Position numbers and translations under genes: made by a program
The notes under the pieces: generated by a model
Told to the model about the DNA's origin: nothing
The model's input: the letters and a program-made list of their open reading frames with translations, nothing else
Database searches by the model: none
Shown here: in pieces, positions 24,223-34,369 of the stretch
Layout of the letters: each line of letters starts with the position of its first letter
Numbering within the stretch: position 1 is the stretch's first letter
NCBI GenBank assembly: GCA_027008775.1
Contig: JALVDV010000004.1
Span: 24,544-88,543, forward strand
DNA: 64,000 bases
Origin: Candidatus Moraniibacteriota bacterium
Lineage (GTDB): Bacteria > Patescibacteriota > Minisyncoccia > Moranbacterales > DUUL01
Reading direction: 5' to 3'

Positions 24223-25266
24223 TTATTTCTCTGAAGAAGCTCTTGTTACTTTGGGTTGTTTTTGGGAAGAGAGAAAGTTGTTAACCAGAGAGAGAATTTT
24301 GTTGAAATCGTTTTCCCAGATTATTCTTTGATCTCGCCGGAACCAAGTTCTTTGTCGTTTGGCGTAATTTTTTTCCGCCAAGAAAATTTTTTCCAGAAGA
24401 TCTTGTTTGTTTAGTGGTGGTTTATCGGAATTGTTTTTTGCTGATAGAGATTCCTTTTTCTGAAGATAAAGAGGAATCCAGTAATAGGCTAGGCCGAATT
24501 TTTGAATATCTTCCCAAGTCATTTGGTATTTCTTTTTGATGTTTTTTACTTCTTCAATCATTCCCTCTGTCCAGCGACTTTGTAGTCGTTTTTTGATTTT
24601 TTGGGCCAGTTTTTCTCTGGGCCAGTCAAGGCCTATTTGTAGAAAATCTAGGTGGCGAGGAGGTTTTTTTCTGGGCGCGGGCATTTTTCCCAGGGTGTTG
24701 ATTATTTCCAGAGCTCTGATGAGGCGTTGTCTATTGTGCGAATCAATTTTTCGGGCGTAGCAAGCATCTTTATTTTTTAAGAGGACAAAAAGTTCTTCCG
24801 TTGTTTTTTGGGAGAGTTGTTGACGAAAATTTTGGTTTGGTTTGATGGCCGGAAAGATTGGTTGGTCAATAAGAGCTTGGATCCAGAAACCGGTACCTCC
24901 GCAAACAATGGGGATTTTTTGGCGAGCCGATATTTGTTTAATCAGGCGTAAAGCGTCTTTTTGAAAATTGCTGACATTATAACGATTTTCGTCTTGCAAA
25001 TGTCGGCGAGGGTCTTCAAAGTCAAGTAGGTGGTGAGGAATTTCGCGATAGAAATAAATTTCTTGGTCTTTGTTTTTTTGCCAATACCCGGGAACTTTGC
25101 CGGTGCCCAGATTTAGGTCACAGTAAATTTGTCGGGAATCAGCGGAGATTATTTCTCCGTTTATTTTTTGCGCCAAATCCACGGCCAGGTCCGATTTGCC
25201 GGAAGAAGTCGGTCCGAGGATGACAATAACTTTGGTGTTTTCTGTCTGGCTTTTGTTCTTGTTCAT
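24223..25266 (-). CDS. miaA: tRNA (adenosine(37)-N6)-dimethylallyltransferase
   Basis: GPTSSGKS, EIISADSRQIY, GGTGFW, RLIRALEI, YAKRQRTWFR. Confidence 0.95.
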   Translation of the reverse strand: MNKNKSQTENTKVIVILGPTSSGKSDLAVDLAQKINGEIISADSRQIYCDLNLGTGKVPGYWQKNKDQEIYFYREIPHHLLDFEDPRRHLQDENRYNVSNFQKDALRLIKQISARQKIPIVCGGTGFWIQALIDQPIFPAIKPNQNFRQQLSQKTTEELFVLLKNKDACYARKIDSHNRQRLIRALEIINTLGKMPAPRKKPPRHLDFLQIGLDWPREKLAQKIKKRLQSRWTEGMIEEVKNIKKKYQMTWEDIQKFGLAYYWIPLYLQKKESLSAKNNSDKPPLNKQDLLEKIFLAEKNYAKRQRTWFRRDQRIIWENDFNKILSLVNNFLSSQKQPKVTRASSEK

Positions 25267-25470
25267 AAACAGTTTTATTGGTGACCGAAAATTATTTATT
25301 GTTTTTTGGATGGCTTCTTGTTTGTTGTATAGCATACAACATTTGTTGGAAAAGAAAAGGCTTGGCTTGATGGTTTTGTTCCTATTTTTCCAAAAAATAG
25401 GGGGTTATTTTGATAAATCAGAGAGCCAATGTTTGGTTGACAAATTTATTAAAATGTGCTAGACTGCTAC

Positions 25471-26737: not shown

Positions 26738-27145
26738 TTAATCAATAAAACCAAAATGTTTTAGGGTGGGGATGATGTTGGGCGCCAGGTTTTCTTTTTC
26801 CAAGTCGGATAGATTGAGCCAAGCCCAATCTTTGATAAAATCGGCCGGTTTGACGGGAGTTAGTCTTTCAGCCAAATAGTGTACCAAGATGACATCAAGT
26901 TTTTCTTGGCCAACATTTTTTTGGGTATAAAGCAGAAATGGTTGGTCGGACAAAATTTTGATCTCAATGCCGAGTTCTTCGCGGGAGCGGATGATGGCTG
27001 TTTCTTGCAAGTTTTTTCCGGGTTTGATTTGTCCGCCACAAAATTTCCAGAAGTCGGAATCACCGTGTTTGTCCAATAAGACCTTGTTGTTTTCCACGAT
27101 TACCGGTCCAGAGGCGATGATGATTTTATTTGTTGTTTCAACCAT
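26738..27145 (-). CDS. NUDIX hydrolase
   Basis: WKFCGGQIKPGKNLQETAIIRSREELGI, a degenerate Nudix box. Confidence 0.8.
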   Translation of the reverse strand: MVETTNKIIIASGPVIVENNKVLLDKHGDSDFWKFCGGQIKPGKNLQETAIIRSREELGIEIKILSDQPFLLYTQKNVGQEKLDVILVHYLAERLTPVKPADFIKDWAWLNLSDLEKENLAPNIIPTLKHFGFID

Positions 27146-27190: not shown

Positions 27191-27790
27191 TTACTTATTT
27201 TGGTCTAACTTTTTGTAGGTCATTTTCTTAAGATTTTTCCACCAGTTAGTGGAAGAGGTTTTTTCCATTTCGGTCAGGAGTTTTTTGGCTGATTCGGTTT
27301 CAACCGCTTTGGAAACATTGTCAATCCAGTTTTGGGTGGAAGAATATCCTTGTTCTTTATATTCCTTGGCTTGAAAAGCCATTTCCAGCCAATCGGCGTC
27401 TCTGGCTACAATGCCTTCTTTGGTGTTTCTGTCTGTAAATTCTTGAAAGTATTTTTGCCATTTTTCTTCAACTGTTGTTCCCAAGTTTTCTATTTGTTCC
27501 CGGAAGGCTTGACGAGAAGGTTCTTTGTTGGAGTAGTAACGGGCGGCAACTTTATGTTGGTCGCCAATTCTGGCTTCGGCGATGTCATGAATAATAAGCA
27601 TAGAAGCGACTTTTTCCGGGTTGACATTTTCCATAACGGCCAGAATGTAGCCAATTTGGGCGGCGCGTAAAGTGTGTTCGGCGATGGAAGCGGAGCCGGC
27701 CGCCGGCAGGCCGGCCAACGACCAACCACTGGTTTTTCTTTTTAATTGACTCATCTCAAAGATGAAGTTGACGATTTTCTTGATGTCCAT
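27191..27790 (-). CDS. HD-domain phosphohydrolase (YfbR/HD_3-like)
   Basis: LKR..GW, SIAEHT, IIHDIAEARIGD, RDADWLE. Confidence 0.85.
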   Translation of the reverse strand: MDIKKIVNFIFEMSQLKRKTSGWSLAGLPAAGSASIAEHTLRAAQIGYILAVMENVNPEKVASMLIIHDIAEARIGDQHKVAARYYSNKEPSRQAFREQIENLGTTVEEKWQKYFQEFTDRNTKEGIVARDADWLEMAFQAKEYKEQGYSSTQNWIDNVSKAVETESAKKLLTEMEKTSSTNWWKNLKKMTYKKLDQNK

Positions 27791-27872: not shown

Positions 27873-29504
27873 TTAATGGCGATGTAATTTTTTGACCAAA
27901 TAAGTTTCTCGCAAACGATAGCCGTGACGACGGTAATAATGACGAACGCCAACGCCGGAAATAACGACTATTTTTTGTTGTTGGGCGGGAATGCCCAGTT
28001 TGCCTAATTCTTGCCGACTGATTTTTTCCGCCAGTTGCAGAAGCTTTTTGCCCAGACCGTGGTGTTGGGGCGAATGTTTGCTTTTTTGTTTAAGGGAAGT
28101 TAATTGGCCGTAGGTGTGCAATTCTCTGATAACGGCGGAATTTTTGAGGACTTTTGGCAGGTCAGTGGCGTCGGGGCGATTAATTCTTAGGCGGAGTAAA
28201 GAATAAAGTTTGTTGTTTTGGTCAATAAATTGCAAAAAAATCTCCTTGCCTTGAGAAGCGGGATAGTCAATTCTTTGCAATTTGATTTTCCCTTTGGTTG
28301 GTAATTGATTTTTAATCTCTCGGCAACGGATACATTGGCAGTTGGTTTTGGGCGCGATTATTTGACGTAGATTGGAAATGTTGGGTCCGGCTTCTATGGC
28401 CGGCAGAGGGACATCGCGGACGAGTCTTTGAATGCGAACGTATGGAGGAATGATTTCGTTTTTCACTTTGATTATCAGTTTTTCAAAATCTTTGTTGCTG
28501 AGGGGTTGATACTGGTCTTTTTTCCACCAACGATAAAGAAGAGAGTTTTTGATGACTAAGGTGGGGTAAATTTTTAACATATCCGGTTGGAAATCCGGGT
28601 TGCGAAATATTTCTTTGAACATTTCTAGATCTTTCTGCGGGCTGGAACCGGGTAGGCCGGGCATTAAATGGTAGTTGATTTTAAAACCGGCTTGTTTAAG
28701 CAGGCGAGTGGCTTGGATGGTGACAGCGGTGGAGTGACCACGTTTATTTTTTTTAAGAACATCATCAAAAATTGATTGCACACCCAGTTCCACGCGGGTG
28801 CAACCCAATTCTCTAAAATTTGTTATTTCTTCTTGGTCAATCCAATCAGGTCTGGTTTCCAAAGTAAGGCCGACAATTCTGACAGAGGCGCTCTCGTTTC
28901 TTTTTTGTTCGGCGTTAAGGGAGAAGTTGGTTTTTTTTGACTTCTTTCTTTTTTCCGTTTGAAAAGTTGAAGGAGAAAATTCATTGCAAGCGCGAAAACA
29001 TTCTTTGATAAACCAACGTTGGTATTTTTTGGGAAAGTAAGAAAAAGTTCCGCCCATAACAATCAATTCTATTTTATCTATGGGGTGTCCGTTGATGAGT
29101 AGTGAGTAAAGGCGATTTTGAACTTGTTGGTAGGGATGAAATTTGTTGAGAATGGCGCGCATAACGGCCGGTTCGTTGGAGAGATAACTTTTGGGCATAT
29201 TTTTTTCATTGGGACAAAAAGCGCACTGACCGGGACAGGGGTATGGTTTGGTAAGAACGGCCACAACCGCCACGCCGGATTGGGTACGGACGGCGCGAGC
29301 TTGCATTGCTTTTTCCAACGTTTTCTTCCTTTTTATTTTCTTTTGTGATACCATTTTTTCGTATTCCTCTCTCAAATCAGCGTTGGTCGGTTGGGCTAAT
29401 TGTCGTTCGGAATAGAATTGTTTTTTCAGTTTGAGGAAACGTTTGTTGGAGGTTATTTTTTGCTGGAGAGCAAATTTGATAAATTGTTGATCTAGAGAAG
29501 TCAT
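27873..29504 (-). CDS. elp3: Elp3 radical-SAM/KAT tRNA uridine(34) carboxymethyltransferase
   Basis: CPGQCAFCP, MPKSY, IVMGGTF, ETRPD, RVELGVQS, KIYPT, CQCIRCRE, RELHTYG, QHHGLGKKL, VISGVGVRHYYR. The ORF-track extension to 29816 overlaps the opposite gene, so the start is placed at 29504. Confidence 0.93.
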   Translation of the reverse strand: MTSLDQQFIKFALQQKITSNKRFLKLKKQFYSERQLAQPTNADLREEYEKMVSQKKIKRKKTLEKAMQARAVRTQSGVAVVAVLTKPYPCPGQCAFCPNEKNMPKSYLSNEPAVMRAILNKFHPYQQVQNRLYSLLINGHPIDKIELIVMGGTFSYFPKKYQRWFIKECFRACNEFSPSTFQTEKRKKSKKTNFSLNAEQKRNESASVRIVGLTLETRPDWIDQEEITNFRELGCTRVELGVQSIFDDVLKKNKRGHSTAVTIQATRLLKQAGFKINYHLMPGLPGSSPQKDLEMFKEIFRNPDFQPDMLKIYPTLVIKNSLLYRWWKKDQYQPLSNKDFEKLIIKVKNEIIPPYVRIQRLVRDVPLPAIEAGPNISNLRQIIAPKTNCQCIRCREIKNQLPTKGKIKLQRIDYPASQGKEIFLQFIDQNNKLYSLLRLRINRPDATDLPKVLKNSAVIRELHTYGQLTSLKQKSKHSPQHHGLGKKLLQLAEKISRQELGKLGIPAQQQKIVVISGVGVRHYYRRHGYRLRETYLVKKLHRH

Positions 29505-29546
29505 ATTGGTGAAAGTTCTGTTGATGATAATAATTATTTGTTGTTG

Positions 29547-30242
29547 ATGCGTGATTCTGTCAGTGAAAAAATCAGAAGAGAAACGGAAAGTGGTTACAAT
29601 CAGATAGCGAAAAAGTTTTCCGAGACCAGGAAATATTTTTGGTCTGACTTGCTTTGGTTGGCGGACTTGGTGAAGGACGGGGATATAGTTCTGGATTTTG
29701 GTTGCGGTAACGGTCGTTTGCGAAATTTGCTGGTGGACAAGGAAATAGAATATGTGGGAGTTGACATTTCTGACGAATTGCTGAAAGAAGCCCGAAAAAA
29801 GATAGTTTTTACACAAGAGAACTTTAAGAAAATTTCCGCCGGTGAAACCAGCCTAGCATTTAGCGGAGAAAATTTCAATGTTATTTTCAGTATTGCCACT
29901 TTTCATCATTTACCGGGGAAAAAGTATCGTCAGCAAATAGCTGCAGAGCTCTACAGAGTTTTGCGGAAGGAAGGAAGGTTGGTGGTGACTGTTTGGAACT
30001 TGCGACAAAGGAAATATTTAAAATATTTGTGGCGTAATTGGTGGAGGAAATTGAAAGGAAAAAGTCAATTAGATTGGAGTGATTGTTATATTCCTTTCAA
30101 AGATAATGAAGGAAATGTTTTTTGGCGTTATCACCATGCTTTTTCTCAAAGAAGTTTGAAAAAGTTGTTTGAAGAAGTCGGTTTTAGAAAAATTTCCGTT
30201 CGGAAGGTTGGCGGAAACTTGGTTTTGGTTGGTAAAAAATAG
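29547..30242 (+). CDS. Class I SAM methyltransferase resembling Trm9/ALKBH8 (cm5U34 methyltransferase)
   Basis: YNQIAKKFSETR..FW, LDFGCGNGR, SIATFHHL, RVLRKEGRLVVTVW, DCYIPF, RYHHAF..L parallel Trm9 motifs. Confidence 0.75.
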   Translation: MRDSVSEKIRRETESGYNQIAKKFSETRKYFWSDLLWLADLVKDGDIVLDFGCGNGRLRNLLVDKEIEYVGVDISDELLKEARKKIVFTQENFKKISAGETSLAFSGENFNVIFSIATFHHLPGKKYRQQIAAELYRVLRKEGRLVVTVWNLRQRKYLKYLWRNWWRKLKGKSQLDWSDCYIPFKDNEGNVFWRYHHAFSQRSLKKLFEEVGFRKISVRKVGGNLVLVGKK

Positions 30243-30263
30243 ACAAGGAAGGGAAAATGTTGT

Positions 30264-30318
30264 TTGACTTTGGGTTGGCTAGTTGTTATTATAGTGCATA
30301 GTTTTTGCCGTTCTTTGG
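30264..30318 (+). promoter_or_regulatory. tRNA operon promoter with boxA-like element
   Basis: TTGACT-17-TATTAT at 30264-30292; GTTCTTTGG at 30310-30318. Confidence 0.55.
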
Positions 30319-30322
30319 TAAT

Positions 30323-30394
30323 GGTCGCGTGGCCGAGTGGTTTAGGCAAGGGTCTGCAAAACCCTGTACCCCGGTTCAATTCCGGGCGCGACCT
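30323..30394 (+). tRNA. tRNA-Cys (GCA)
   Basis: GGTCGCG/CGCGACC acceptor stem; anticodon loop CT-GCA-AA; GGTTCAATTCC T-arm; discriminator U; no encoded CCA. Confidence 0.96.
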
Positions 30395-30424
30395 CATTTA
30401 TTTTTTAGTGAAATTTTTTAACAA

Positions 30425-30511
30425 GCCCGGGTGGTGGAACCGGTAGACACGCAGGACTTAAAATCCTGTGGAGTAAAATCCGTGCGGGTTCAAGTCCCGC
30501 CCCGGGCACCA
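30425..30511 (+). tRNA. tRNA-Leu (TAA)
   Basis: GCCCGGG/CCCGGGC acceptor stem; anticodon loop CT-TAA-AA; long variable arm; GGTTCAAGTCC; encoded CCA. Confidence 0.96.
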
Positions 30512-30522
30512 GAATTTGACTT

Positions 30523-30545
30523 GTCGGCCAAAGGCCGATTTTTTT
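30523..30545 (+). terminator. Terminator after the tRNA pair
   Basis: TCGGCC-aaa-GGCCGA followed by TTTTTTT. Confidence 0.65.
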
Positions 30546-30733: not shown

Positions 30734-31048
30734 ATGGTGAAGAATAATTGTGTCAGTAAGAAAAAGAAAAAGGATTTGGAGGGAGTCATTGATTTTTTGA
30801 AGGCGCTTTCGGACGGGACGCGTTTGCAAATTCTTTGTTTATTGAGAAAGGAAGAGAAGTGTGTTTGTGAGATTATTGGTTTTTTGAATTTGCCGCAAAA
30901 CCTTGTGTCGCATCATTTAAAAGTCTTGCGTGACGCCGGGTTGGTAGAGGCGCGCAAAAGCGGGGTGCAAGTTTTTTATAAGATAAAAGATGCGGACGTG
31001 CAAAAGCATATCAATCATTTGCAAAAGTTAATTACAAAATCTGAATAA
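30734..31048 (+). CDS. ArsR/SmtB family transcriptional regulator
   Basis: LKALSDGTRLQIL..EKCVCEI...QNLVSHHLKVLRDAGLV. Confidence 0.93.
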   Translation: MVKNNCVSKKKKKDLEGVIDFLKALSDGTRLQILCLLRKEEKCVCEIIGFLNLPQNLVSHHLKVLRDAGLVEARKSGVQVFYKIKDADVQKHINHLQKLITKSE

Positions 31049-31054
31049 AGACGT

Positions 31055-31372
31055 ATGAACAAAATAAAACTCGGAATATTGCTTGGAATCGTCGTCGGGA
31101 TTATTGATGTTATCCCAATGGTATTTGTGGGTTTAACTTGGGATGCAAATTTATCCGCGTTTTTTCATTGGGTTGTTGTCGGTTTTTTGATAGCGACGGT
31201 TGATATAAAAATGAGAGGTGTTTTGAAGGGAATATTTATATCCGTTATTACTCTTGTTCCGTTGGCATTTTTGGTGTGGTGGAAAGATGGATCAAGTATA
31301 ATACCGATGACTGCGTCAACTATTGTTTATGGAGTGATATTGGGATTTTTTATAGACAAATATGGTAAATAA
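31055..31372 (+). CDS. Small four-TM membrane protein
   Basis: Hydrophobic 105-aa ORF (GIIDVIPM) within the operon. Confidence 0.7.
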   Translation: MNKIKLGILLGIVVGIIDVIPMVFVGLTWDANLSAFFHWVVVGFLIATVDIKMRGVLKGIFISVITLVPLAFLVWWKDGSSIIPMTASTIVYGVILGFFIDKYGK

Positions 31373-31391
31373 TTTTTTAAATAGCAAAAAT

Positions 31392-31649
31392 ATGCAAAAG
31401 ATAAAAATCCAGGTCTTTGGTTCGGGATGTCCAACTTGTGAGATGCTTTATAATCGTGTTTCCAAGGTGGCAAAGGAGATCAGTCCGGAATTGGAGGTTG
31501 ATTATATTACCAATATCAGAAAGATGGTAGAGCTGGGAGCGATGAGTTCCCCGGTTTTCGCCATTGATAAGCGAATAATTACTGCCGGGCAGTTGCCGGA
31601 GGAAGAAGAAATCAAAAAAGCTATTGAGGCGAGATTAGCTGATAAATAG
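31392..31649 (+). CDS. Small thioredoxin-fold redox protein (MTH895-like)
   Basis: IQVFGSGCPTC, MSSPVFAID. Confidence 0.85.
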   Translation: MQKIKIQVFGSGCPTCEMLYNRVSKVAKEISPELEVDYITNIRKMVELGAMSSPVFAIDKRIITAGQLPEEEEIKKAIEARLADK

Positions 31650-31688
31650 AGAGTATTAATTATTAAGAATTAACATTAACAAAAAGAT

Positions 31689-32480
31689 ATGTTGGAAAAT
31701 ATTTTATTGACCAGTTTAATTGTAGGCGTGGTTACGGCCGGTCTGAAGATTCGCTTTGATCGGTTTTTCACAATTTTGTTGCTCTTGTTTATTTTTGGCC
31801 TAAACATTAGGGAGGCGGTGAATGTTTTTCTGTGGGTTATTATGTTGGGAGCTTTGGTAATTATTTTTCAAAACAGAAAGAAGATTACTCAGCTACCAAA
31901 GGTAATGAAAAAGAAGCTATTTGTTGTAATTCCGATTTTTACTTTAATTGCTTCTTGGGTGGGAACGTTATTGTTTGAAAATGTTAGTGATACAGTTCTG
32001 ATTGTGACTTTGGGTGTTTTGGCGATTCTTTATGGCCTGCGTTTAATATTTGTGCATTTCCAAGAGTATGAACTGGAATTTAAAGAGGGGCATCCGACGA
32101 TTAGCAAAGCGTGTGGATTGTTGGGGCCTTGGATTAGCGGATTTTTCATTGGTTTTATTGGTACCTCACTTAAACCTTTAAAAATTCCTTTTGCCGTTAA
32201 AATTGGCAAGATGAATGTTAAACAAGTTTATCTGGGAAATGTGATTGTGGCATTTTTCGCTTCGGTATTTGCTGTGGTATGGCATCATCTTTTAGCTAAA
32301 CAAGTATTGGCTGACTGGTGGGAAGAAGCGGTTCTAGGTATTATCTTGTGGTTTGGTATTCATTTTATTTATGAAGCGACTGACAAAGTTTTTCCGCCGA
32401 AGTGGCGAAAGGTTTTCCAGGTTTTGGTTGGAATTATTCTTCTTTTGGTTTCTGTAAAGATTTTTATGTTGGTTAAATAA
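31689..32480 (+). CDS. Multi-TM membrane protein, TauE/SafE-like exporter candidate
   Basis: About eight TMs with a two-repeat layout and an SGFFIGFIG motif. Confidence 0.55.
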   Translation: MLENILLTSLIVGVVTAGLKIRFDRFFTILLLLFIFGLNIREAVNVFLWVIMLGALVIIFQNRKKITQLPKVMKKKLFVVIPIFTLIASWVGTLLFENVSDTVLIVTLGVLAILYGLRLIFVHFQEYELEFKEGHPTISKACGLLGPWISGFFIGFIGTSLKPLKIPFAVKIGKMNVKQVYLGNVIVAFFASVFAVVWHHLLAKQVLADWWEEAVLGIILWFGIHFIYEATDKVFPPKWRKVFQVLVGIILLLVSVKIFMLVK

Positions 32481-32493
32481 CCATTAAAACGAT

Positions 32494-33384
32494 ATGTCAC
32501 ATAATCACGCGCATAAAGCTCCAAAGACAATTTCCGGTTTAATGGTCGCTATCGGCATAAATATTGTGATTACGGTTTTTGAGATTGTTTTGGGAATTGT
32601 GGCGAACAGTTTGGCTTTAATATCCGATGCCGCTCACAATTTAACGGATATCGGTTCAATGGTTTTGGGTTATGTAACTGAAAAGATGGTTGCTCGTCCG
32701 GCCAATGATAAAAGGACCTATGGTTATAGAAAGATGGAATTCGTAACCGCCTTTGTCAATGGGCTTATTCTATTATTGGTAACCGGCTATATTTTATACG
32801 AAGGTATCATTAGATTATTTACGGCTCCGGAAGTGATAAGTGGGGTAATGTTCTATGTTGGACTGATTGCCTTATTGGGGAATACAATAGCTACTTGGAT
32901 TTTAACAAAAAGTTCCAAGAATAATACTAATATGCAGGCAGTGTGGTTGCATTCTTTACAAGATGCCCTTTCTTCTCTGGGAGTTGTTATGGGAGCCGTT
33001 ATTATTAAATTTACCGGTTGGAATATTGTTGACCCGGTCATCTCTATTTTAATTGCCGTTTTTTTAATTAAAAGTATTTATCATTTGATTAAAAGAACTG
33101 TGGATGCTTTACTGGATTCTGTGCCGGAAGGAATTGACTACGAAGAGGTGAAGCGAGATTTATTGCAAATCAAGGGAGTGACTAAGCTTAACGATTTGCA
33201 TATTTGGTTGGAGAGTTCTCGTTTGCCGATGTTGTCAGTGCATTTACAAATTGAAGACTTGAATGATTTGGAGCAGATTTTTCAAGAAGCAAAAAAGCTT
33301 TTGTTTGATAAATATCATATTGAGCACACAACGATTCAGATTATTCCGGTGGATTTTGAAATGAAGTCTGAGTATTGCAATTAA
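32494..33384 (+). CDS. Cation diffusion facilitator (CzcD/ZitB-type)
   Basis: His-rich N-terminus; SLALISDAAHNLTD, TYGY, HSLQDALSS, DLHIW, HTTIQI. Confidence 0.93.
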   Translation: MSHNHAHKAPKTISGLMVAIGINIVITVFEIVLGIVANSLALISDAAHNLTDIGSMVLGYVTEKMVARPANDKRTYGYRKMEFVTAFVNGLILLLVTGYILYEGIIRLFTAPEVISGVMFYVGLIALLGNTIATWILTKSSKNNTNMQAVWLHSLQDALSSLGVVMGAVIIKFTGWNIVDPVISILIAVFLIKSIYHLIKRTVDALLDSVPEGIDYEEVKRDLLQIKGVTKLNDLHIWLESSRLPMLSVHLQIEDLNDLEQIFQEAKKLLFDKYHIEHTTIQIIPVDFEMKSEYCN

Positions 33385-33397
33385 CTCATAAATTTTT

Positions 33398-34369
33398 ATG
33401 GACATTTTTTATCCTTTTGAGTGGTTGGCTGATTATATTACTTTTGTTGTTTTTCATTTACAAGCTGATACTCGTTTGGCGGAGGCTTGTCATTTTTTTA
33501 TTTATGACTCTCTGAAAATTTTGGTGTTGATTTTATTGATTACTCATTTAATGAGTTTGTTGCGGTATTATTTACCGGTGGAGAAGTTGCGTGATTTTCT
33601 CAAAAGTCGCAATTTTTATGGACTGGATTATTTTTTGGCGACGATTTTTGGAGCGGTGACACCGTTTTGTTCTTGTTCATCTATTCCGCTTTTTATCGGC
33701 TTCGTGGAGGCGGGAATTCCTTTGGGTGTTACTTTTGCTTTTTTGATTGCCTCACCGCTTATCAACGAGGTAGCGCTGGCTCTTTTTATCGGAATGTTCG
33801 GTTTGAAAATTACCGCTCTTTATGTTGGGGCGGGGATTGCCATTGGAATTGTTGGTGGATTTATTATTGAGCATTTACATCTGGAGAGGTTTGTGGAGGA
33901 CTTTGTTTGGCAAGTAAAAAGTCAGCCTCGGCAGATTGAGAGAAAAAAAGCTTCCTGGAAAGAAGTTGTCAGAAATGTTTCCAGAGAAGCTTTGGGTATT
34001 ACAAAGAAAATTGTTTGGTATGTATTGGCCGGAGTTGGAATTGGCGCTTTAATTCACGGATACGTTCCGCAAGGATTTTTTGCCGCATATTTACAAAAAG
34101 CCGGCTGGTGGGGTGTGCCGTTGGCGGTGATTTTGGCAGTTCCACTTTACTCCAATGCCAGTGGAGTGATTCCGATTATGCAATCTTTGGTGGAAAAGGG
34201 GGTGCCCTTGGGTACGGCCCTGGCTTTGATGATGGCGATTGTCGGTGTTTCTTTGCCCGAGGCCTTAATTCTGAAGAAAGTGATTAAATGGCCATTGCTG
34301 ACTATCTTTTTCGGTATTGTCACCTTAGGGATTATTTTGATTGGCTATTTGTTTAATGTGATTTTGTAA
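33398..34369 (+). CDS. ArsP (DUF318) family permease
   Basis: TPFCSCSSIP, AFLIASPLINE, AVPLYSN, GVSLPE. Confidence 0.9.
   Translation: MDIFYPFEWLADYITFVVFHLQADTRLAEACHFFIYDSLKILVLILLITHLMSLLRYYLPVEKLRDFLKSRNFYGLDYFLATIFGAVTPFCSCSSIPLFIGFVEAGIPLGVTFAFLIASPLINEVALALFIGMFGLKITALYVGAGIAIGIVGGFIIEHLHLERFVEDFVWQVKSQPRQIERKKASWKEVVRNVSREALGITKKIVWYVLAGVGIGALIHGYVPQGFFAAYLQKAGWWGVPLAVILAVPLYSNASGVIPIMQSLVEKGVPLGTALALMMAIVGVSLPEALILKKVIKWPLLTIFFGIVTLGIILIGYLFNVIL

Follow-up and report, generated by a model that had tools for sequence, protein, structure and literature searches.

The window analysed here is a 64,000-nucleotide stretch of contig JALVDV010000004.1 (assembly GCA_027008775.1) from a Candidatus Moraniibacteriota bacterium, and it encodes an Elp3 protein head to head with a small methyltransferase of the Trm9 family. 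We consider it likely, judging from the sequences, that Elp3 makes 5-carboxymethyluridine at position 34 of tRNA (cm5U34) and that this is esterified by the methyltransferase, probably acting on its own, to 5-methoxycarbonylmethyluridine (mcm5U), or to the 2-thiolated form (mcm5s2U) together with MnmA. An earlier note on this DNA had described a full Elp3 on the minus strand and a methyltransferase on the plus strand diverging from a 42-bp spacer, and the coordinates of these features were confirmed:

27873-29504, minus strand: elp3, predicted radical S-adenosylmethionine (SAM)/KAT tRNA U34 carboxymethyltransferase, 543 amino acids from the ATG at 29504
29505-29546, no strand: divergent spacer, 42 bp
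29547-30242, plus strand: Trm9-family class I SAM methyltransferase (P0002), predicted cm5U34 carboxyl methyltransferase, 231 amino acids

The source genome consisted of 929,492 bases in 11 contigs and was 96% complete and 0.09% contaminated. It was compared with 61 relatives of the same family and order, with a phylum sample of 201 Patescibacteria genomes that were each at least 85% complete, and with 80 related named loci used for synteny; the source genome and one other (G030) were counted in both genome samples. The head-to-head junction was spanned by one contig in each of three out of three further DNA runs from two studies. The closest named relatives of the methyltransferase were mostly from Candidatus Moranbacteria and Parcubacteria, which places the source genome in the Patescibacteria (CPR); several homolog records titled 'Bdellovibrionales' are, we infer, mislabels, as their loci resemble Moranbacteria ones.

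Analysis of Elp3 revealed it to match TIGR01211 with 546.6 bits (cut-off 350) across model positions 6-522 of 522, with fused radical-SAM and KAT domains, and to align with M. infernus Elp3 (MinElp3; 6IA8) at E 2e-115. The radical-SAM cysteines C90, C94 and C97 were present, as was a CxCxxC motif at 389, and mapping via the 6IA8 alignment placed K144, K275, E461, H463 and Y523 at MinElp3 K150, K266, Q461, H463 and Y517; E461 corresponded to E386 in the acetyl-CoA pocket of Dehalococcoides mccartyi Elp3 (DmcElp3). By these residues the protein is intact, with its Fe-S cysteines and acetyl-CoA pocket, and formation of cm5U34 is predicted. DmcElp3 (5L7J, 6IA6; PMC6367351) is likewise a bacterial stand-alone Elp3 with the same acetyl-CoA pocket residues (E 6e-115), whereas at the N-terminus the window Elp3 is longer than DmcElp3 by a basic extension of about 70 residues. 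In the accessible text of PMC6367351, DmcElp3 is called a rare example without a downstream enzyme, whereas Elp3 was found here in 85 of the 201 phylum genomes. Prokaryotic Elp3 is reported to work alone, in the accessible part of that literature, and the available portion of PMC13315578 states that 'numerous bacteria' carry it.

Pfam and NCBIfam described P0002 as a generic class I enzyme, with no NCBIfam family over its cut-off, and its assignment to the Trm9 family was decided by residues. Eight residues of yeast Trm9 (ScTrm9) whose alanine mutants are strongly impaired, in the accessible part of PMC4678810, include R29, D72, H116, W145, R241, N271, Y243 and W168. Six of the eight, R29, D72, H116, W145, R241 and N271, were kept in P0002 as R28, D73, H121, W150, R194 and N224. 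Together with H120, the equivalent of ScTrm9 H115, these six were invariant in all 65 aligned homologs (the alignment holding 65 of the 120 listed matches plus the query); weaker methyltransferase matches held at most four of these seven Trm9 residues. Thirteen of 14 checked P0002 positions were identical to those of named ALKBH8 proteins, and many distant bacterial members retained the exact Trm9 RYY motif. The six motifs quoted in the earlier note were all found in the translation, and their Trm9 counterparts follow in the same order in Yarrowia lipolytica Trm9 (5CM2_Z) and named ALKBH8 proteins. A TTG codon lies in frame at 29538, yet M1 of P0002 was nearly invariant in the homolog alignment.

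A eukaryote-only profile was made from 64 ALKBH8/TRMT9B methyltransferase domains, fetched with a giant-virus Trm9-like protein that had been found by the 5CM2 motif. It scored P0002 at 115.4 bits (E 5.6e-34) and a haloarchaeal Trm9-like protein at 115.8 bits; the next of the 4519 open reading frames (ORFs) of the source genome reached 28.0 bits. The structural model of P0002 (predicted local distance difference test score 94.6) showed a class I SAM fold in which two strands (179-185 and 191-197) form a lid at 179-197 between strand 5 and helix E, as described for Trm9. The fold alone does not single out Trm9, as generic methyltransferases tied with it in Foldseek and in the VIA structure comparison; of the searches put forward in the earlier note, the profile separated P0002 clearly and the fold comparison did not. 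In a quick maximum-likelihood tree of 88 rows, 49 bacterial, 19 eukaryotic, seven viral and one haloarchaeal row stood apart from 12 motif-less methyltransferases (SH-aLRT 96); the outgroup, taken from weaker matches mostly without the motif, is partly circular. A plasmid match from Nonomuraea (H1) was rejected as a Trm9 member because it was without the motif, and served as outgroup. Fold and Protein Data Bank (PDB) ranking favour Trm9 narrowly at most; on its residues P0002 is, by sequence, a member of the Trm9 family.

A search of 1.84 billion proteins returned 1057 clusters at E 1e-30 or better, and names looked up for 10 of the best 150 gave one taxon, Patescibacteria; look-alike clusters in Chloroflexota and archaea in the Atlas are leads only. 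Automatic JGI labels of TRM9 or ALKBH8 were borne by four of the 120 listed homologs. Searching longer proteins with the bacterial alignment gave no match, which is weak evidence, though two genomes carry fusions: in G247 (L094:2203-3675, minus strand) and G182 (L095:2175-3698, minus strand) a Trm9-type domain was fused to a WecG/TagA glycosyltransferase, unlinked from elp3, and the two were sister rows in the tree. Eight giant-virus contigs (L157, L161, L166, L167, L171, L173, L183 and L199) encoded Trm9-like proteins of a single domain that have the complete catalytic set and fall within the eukaryotic rows of the tree; no Trm9-like ORF came from 36 of the 45 viral pattern matches.

Among the 61 relatives the methyltransferase was counted at 100 bits or more (rows below this were dropped, and one was merged as the second piece of G040). 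It was present in 38, and Elp3 was found in all 38; Elp3 without the methyltransferase was seen in two relatives, each cut off by a contig end, and the other 21 had neither. The pair was adjacent in 33 of the 38, divergent in every case, and a 34th pair (G034) lay at a contig end. For the phylum sample, rows below 83 bits were dropped, including G090 at 80.6 bits, which was without the motif, leaving 67 genomes with the methyltransferase by score. Residues were checked in 33 of these, and G188 was rejected as a carrier since its 90-bit match held two of the seven residues. Elp3 was present in 65 of the resulting 66, across many families, so that about a third of the phylum sample carried both genes, and 55 of the 65 pairs lay within 5 kb, all divergent. 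The synteny that the earlier note had put up for testing was borne out, also among the named loci, where elp3 lay divergently upstream of the methyltransferase in 74 of 77 informative cases. With 38 of 38 and 65 of 66 methyltransferase genomes carrying Elp3, the pairing exceeds chance.

No MnmG was found in the source genome, and the MnmE model gave only weak partial matches (18-27 bits against a cut-off of 252.6). Across the phylum MnmG was present in eight of 201 genomes and in none of the 85 with Elp3, for which the chance is about 1 in 90, a figure overstated owing to kinship. Neither MnmG nor Elp3 was found in 108 of the 201, and because about half of the sampled Patescibacteria are without both, U34 C5 modification by either route looks dispensable. 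A search for Trm112 (PF03966) gave no match in the source genome or in any of the 61 relatives; seven of 14 controls were matched. At two positions that contact Trm112 in 5CM2 (F78 and V59), residues were hydrophobic in 7/49 and 5/48 bacterial rows versus 62 and 60 of 64 eukaryotic rows, and at a third (V102) in 29/49 versus 64/64; P0002 has E68 and K94 at two core interface positions and retains I47. Polar residues at these positions fit an enzyme predicted to be independent of Trm112. The core of the earlier note's proposal, an Elp3 and a true Trm9-family enzyme without MnmEG or Trm112, held in the computational tests of residues, reciprocal profile, tree, synteny and co-occurrence; the single divergent promoter that it included is unproven.

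MnmA was encoded in the source genome and in 59 of the 61 relatives. To supply Fe-S clusters and acetyl-CoA, the source genome also encodes IscS-IscU and pyruvate:ferredoxin oxidoreductase. Among its tRNAs are all five that the accessible text of PMC5372719 gives as yeast Trm9 substrates: Arg(UCU), Gly(UCC), Lys(UUU), Gln(UUG) and Glu(UUC). By family chemistry, Elp3 would place a carboxymethyl group on C5 of U34 using a [4Fe-4S]/SAM radical and acetyl-CoA. The methyltransferase, probably without Trm112, would then transfer a methyl group from SAM to the carboxylate of cm5U, which R28, H120/H121, W150, R194 and N224 would bind, and the pair would fill the role that MnmEG has in most bacteria. 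Since MnmA and the Lys(UUU), Glu(UUC) and Gln(UUG) tRNAs are all present, sulfur added by MnmA would likely turn these tRNAs into carriers of mcm5s2U, a hybrid base that combines thiolation of the bacterial type with a C5 side chain of the archaeal/eukaryotic type. The tRNA-Arg set of the source genome was GCG, UCG, CCU and UCU, with no ACG or CCG among its 41 tRNAs, so that the decoding of CGA and CGG, in the absence of inosine, would fall to U34 of Arg(UCG).

Several observations weigh against this pathway. ScTrm9 Y243 is replaced by H196 in P0002 (a tyrosine in 14/49 bacterial versus 59/60 eukaryotic rows), ScTrm9 W168 falls in a poorly aligned stretch with no mapped equivalent, and the paralog TRMT9B keeps the same residues, which therefore mark the family and not the reaction. 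Y. lipolytica Trm9 was the top PDB match by sequence, profile and Foldseek, though by thin margins (6.2e-11 versus 1.2e-10; Foldseek 3.2e-15 versus 4.2e-15), and in the VIA comparison 5CM2 ranked tenth (Z 20.1, root-mean-square deviation 2.1 over 172; best Z 21.8). The tree has long branches, and its inner order and the origin of the bacterial rows are not resolved. The Trm112-interface region aligns with gaps, the single haloarchaeal row likewise has polar residues at the positions of F78 and V59, and Haloferax volcanii Trm9 (HVO_1032) requires Trm112 (PMC6144793). No SAM synthetase of either type (TIGR01034, PF01941) was found in the source genome, despite its SAM-dependent enzymes. Two relatives (G025 and G001) showed MnmG in addition to the pair, each on a small contig that looks foreign. 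Both cases are likely contamination, one being on a 5.1-kb contig with gene content judged foreign in an 8%-contaminated bin and the other on a 1.8-kb contig of 62% G+C. The co-occurrence counts come from related genomes that are not independent. G127, which is 98% complete in four contigs, has a Trm9-type gene on a long branch (L096:4054-4746, plus strand) and no Elp3. Twenty of the 85 Elp3 genomes were without a Trm9-type enzyme; with a broader profile three of these gave no match, two gave partial matches that were not fetched and 15 had a best match with at most four of the seven residues, and in at least three of the 20 the contig breaks off at elp3.

The replaced tyrosine bears on a reading in which both enzymes act on tRNA U34 and the end product is other than mcm5U, with the ester an intermediate, or with the changed lid (Y243 to H) giving another derivative or action on another carboxylated RNA base. 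Position 196 varies (Y, H, C, V) in the bacterial family only, cm5U is quickly converted to other products in yeast and H. volcanii (in the accessible part of the literature), and a NUDIX gene without known role follows elp3 in 41 of 60 loci. We regard this as improbable, as the other mapped substrate-contact residues are invariant, distant bacterial members keep RYY, and no third modifying gene was conserved between or beside the pair in the 80 related loci. It is also unlikely, if a little less so, that the pathway runs to the same product with the methyltransferase depending on an unrecognised small activator that replaces Trm112. Such a partner would agree with the requirement for Trm112 of all tested Trm9 enzymes, in the accessible literature, with the retained I47 and the V102-equivalent position described above, and with the 40-position length of the PF03966 model, which could miss a divergent protein. 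The same model matched half of the controls and none of the 61 genomes, E68 and K94 occupy two core interface positions, and a small gene would not fit into the spacer of 27 of 71 loci, which is at most 5 bp long. That P0002 is a generic, UbiE-like small-molecule or protein methyltransferase lying beside elp3 by chance is the least credible account. Most named homologs are automatically labelled UbiE, the class I fold is common and no NCBIfam family was over its cut-off, but the UbiE/MenG model (TIGR01934) scored P0002 at 49 bits against a cut-off of 158.35, weaker methyltransferases fall short of the Trm9 residue set, and Elp3 accompanies nearly every carrier across many families.

A last alternative concerns the genes around the pair, where the earlier note had seen an anticodon-modification neighbourhood of miaA and two tRNAs:

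24223-25335, minus strand: miaA (TIGR00174, 193 bits), starting 2538 bp past the elp3 stop, outside the conserved unit
30264-30292, plus strand: sigma70-like promoter before the tRNA pair, 10/12 matches, extended -10
30323-30395, plus strand: tRNA-Cys(GCA), neighbour, probably on its own transcript, linkage not conserved
30425-30511, plus strand: tRNA-Leu(UAA), neighbour, linkage not conserved
30523-30539, plus strand: intrinsic-terminator-like hairpin and T run after the tRNAs

Both tRNAs follow the methyltransferase and have A36-A37-A38, as had been noted, which is the ordinary state of tRNA-Cys and tRNA-Leu(UAA); miaA proved to be a real gene, at a slightly shorter distance than the 2.6 kb given. 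On this alternative the pair would belong to a larger cluster with miaA and act mainly on the adjoining tRNA-Leu(UAA). miaA was near the pair in none of the 80 related loci (56 of them with the full 5 kb upstream), tRNA-Cys followed the methyltransferase in two, and Cys with Leu(UAA) in one. A separate promoter-like site precedes the tRNAs and a terminator-like hairpin follows them; one such promoter site was found where shuffles give 2.0 +/- 1.7, and its position alone argues for it. The yeast Trm9 substrates named in the accessible text of PMC5372719 do not include tRNA-Leu(UAA). We consider a miaA cluster very unlikely, and the neighbourhood proposed earlier was not supported.

The claim of one shared promoter is unproven. 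A promoter scan of the 42-bp spacer found no full consensus promoter; a 10-bp palindrome at 29529-29538 gives a 5/6 match to the -10 hexamer on each strand, which is weak in AT-rich DNA. Start codons abutted directly in eight of 12 inspected relatives with the short spacers mentioned above, and in these no-spacer loci (L007, L009, L015, L018, L019, L036, L041 and L080) a -10-like hexamer within the elp3 reading frame lay immediately ahead of the methyltransferase start. A TANNNT hexamer ending 5-9 bases before the methyltransferase start was found in 45 of 71 loci versus 19.4 expected, and before the elp3 start in 23 versus 19.8 expected, which is no excess. This excess on the methyltransferase side only suggests short-leader or leaderless transcription from putative signals inside the opposite gene.

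Two further genes lie downstream of elp3:

27191-27790, minus strand: HD-domain (YfbR-like nucleotidase) gene, found in 1/80 related loci
26738-27145, minus strand: NUDIX hydrolase, 2.5 kb or less from the elp3 end in 41/60 informative Moranbacteria loci

Speculatively, the NUDIX hydrolase might clear modified nucleotides. After the tRNAs, positions 30734-34369 of the plus strand encode an ArsR regulator (Pfam), then a small thioredoxin-like gene, a CDF-type transporter and a permease, the last three read from their translations; by these predicted products the region resembles a gene cluster for responding to metals or arsenic.

A stand-alone gene for the C-terminal domain of asparagine synthetase adjoined elp3 in three genomes of three families, all with Elp3 and without a Trm9-type enzyme:

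L081:2557-3405 (G073), minus strand: asparagine-synthetase-like gene
L093:3222-4010 (G235), plus strand: asparagine-synthetase-like gene
L204:4834-5265 (G188), plus strand: asparagine-synthetase-like gene, head to head with elp3, 153 bp apart, split by a contig break

A two-sequence profile from the G073 and G235 proteins matched four of the 201 genomes, these three and G223, whose 683-amino-acid frame was taken to be a full AsnB; only G188 is an independent observation, and the 17 other Elp3-only genomes gave no match at E 1e-25. The enzyme converting cm5U to 5-carbamoylmethyluridine (ncm5U) is described as uncharacterised in the accessible text of PMC3110198 and PMC6367351. Because this conversion needs ATP-dependent carboxylate amidation, the asparagine-synthetase-like protein is, by analogy, a candidate ncm5U synthase, and if this is true it would be the long-missing cm5U-to-ncm5U enzyme. 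A broader proposal, that about a third of Patescibacteria make mcm5s2U by MnmA, Elp3 and a self-sufficient, Trm112-free Trm9, and that the slot beside elp3 is swappable, with an AsnB-like ATP amidase there making ncm5U where Trm9 is gone, is tentative and we think it doubtful as a whole. In a further family (f37; L087-L092, L148 and L150) Elp3 occurred without a Trm9-type or AsnB-like gene in eight of eight genomes; ndk and a uracil-DNA glycosylase gene lie upstream of it, and five of six loci scanned have tRNA-Lys(CUU) downstream.

The proposed Elp3-Trm9 pathway can be set beside several known systems. Yeast Trm9-Trm112 (Y. lipolytica 5CM2; PMC4678810) and ALKBH8-TRMT112 share with P0002 the class I fold, the two-strand lid, the R29/D72/H115/H116/W145/R241/N271 equivalents, the link to Elp3 and the predicted conversion of cm5U34 to mcm5U34. 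The window enzyme differs in being bacterial, with Trm112 not found, H in place of Y243, neither an RRM nor an AlkB domain, an identity of about 25%, and a gene head to head with elp3. The archaeal enzymes (H. volcanii HVO_1032-Trm112, PMC6144793; Sulfolobus solfataricus, PMC2584109), in the accessible portions of these papers, resemble it in having Elp3 without Elp1/2/4-6, a single-domain Trm9 and clustered genes, whereas H. volcanii Trm9 needs its partner and archaeal thiolation is predicted via Tuc1 instead of MnmA. MnmE-MnmG(-MnmC), which makes 5-(carboxy)methylaminomethyluridine, also modifies C5 of U34 and shares the predicted role in decoding with MnmA thiolation; its enzymes and side chain are unrelated, and its genes were not found in the source genome or, for MnmG, with Elp3 in the phylum sample. 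E. coli CmoM (SmtA) is a bacterial SAM enzyme that methyl-esterifies a U34 carboxylate, that of uridine 5-oxyacetic acid, on a different substrate and in a different pathway (CmoA/B), and it was not among the 25 best NCBIfam matches of P0002.

To our knowledge, mcm5U has so far been shown only in eukaryotes and archaea. The accessible text of PMC5372719 states that bacteria were not found to have genes for such a methyltransferase, and the accessible parts of PMC10849945, PMC6313347 and a YhcC preprint (bioRxiv 10.64898/2026.05.18.725915) mention Elp3 and not a bacterial Trm9. A literature search, with most subscription journals and supplements outside its reach, gave no report of a bacterial Trm9 or of an elp3-Trm9 pair. 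What would be new is the occurrence of an established two-step pathway in another domain of life, probably without its activator and joined to MnmA. The only solved Trm9 structure is described, in the accessible literature, as lacking its N-terminus and barely active; if our reading is true, the 231-residue Trm9, probably Trm112-free, would be useful for a full-length substrate-bound structure and for learning what Trm112 does, and the two-gene cassette lends itself to testing in E. coli. It would also answer what the product of bacterial Elp3 becomes, and a large bacterial phylum would use the archaeal/eukaryotic side chain, placing mcm5U in all three domains.

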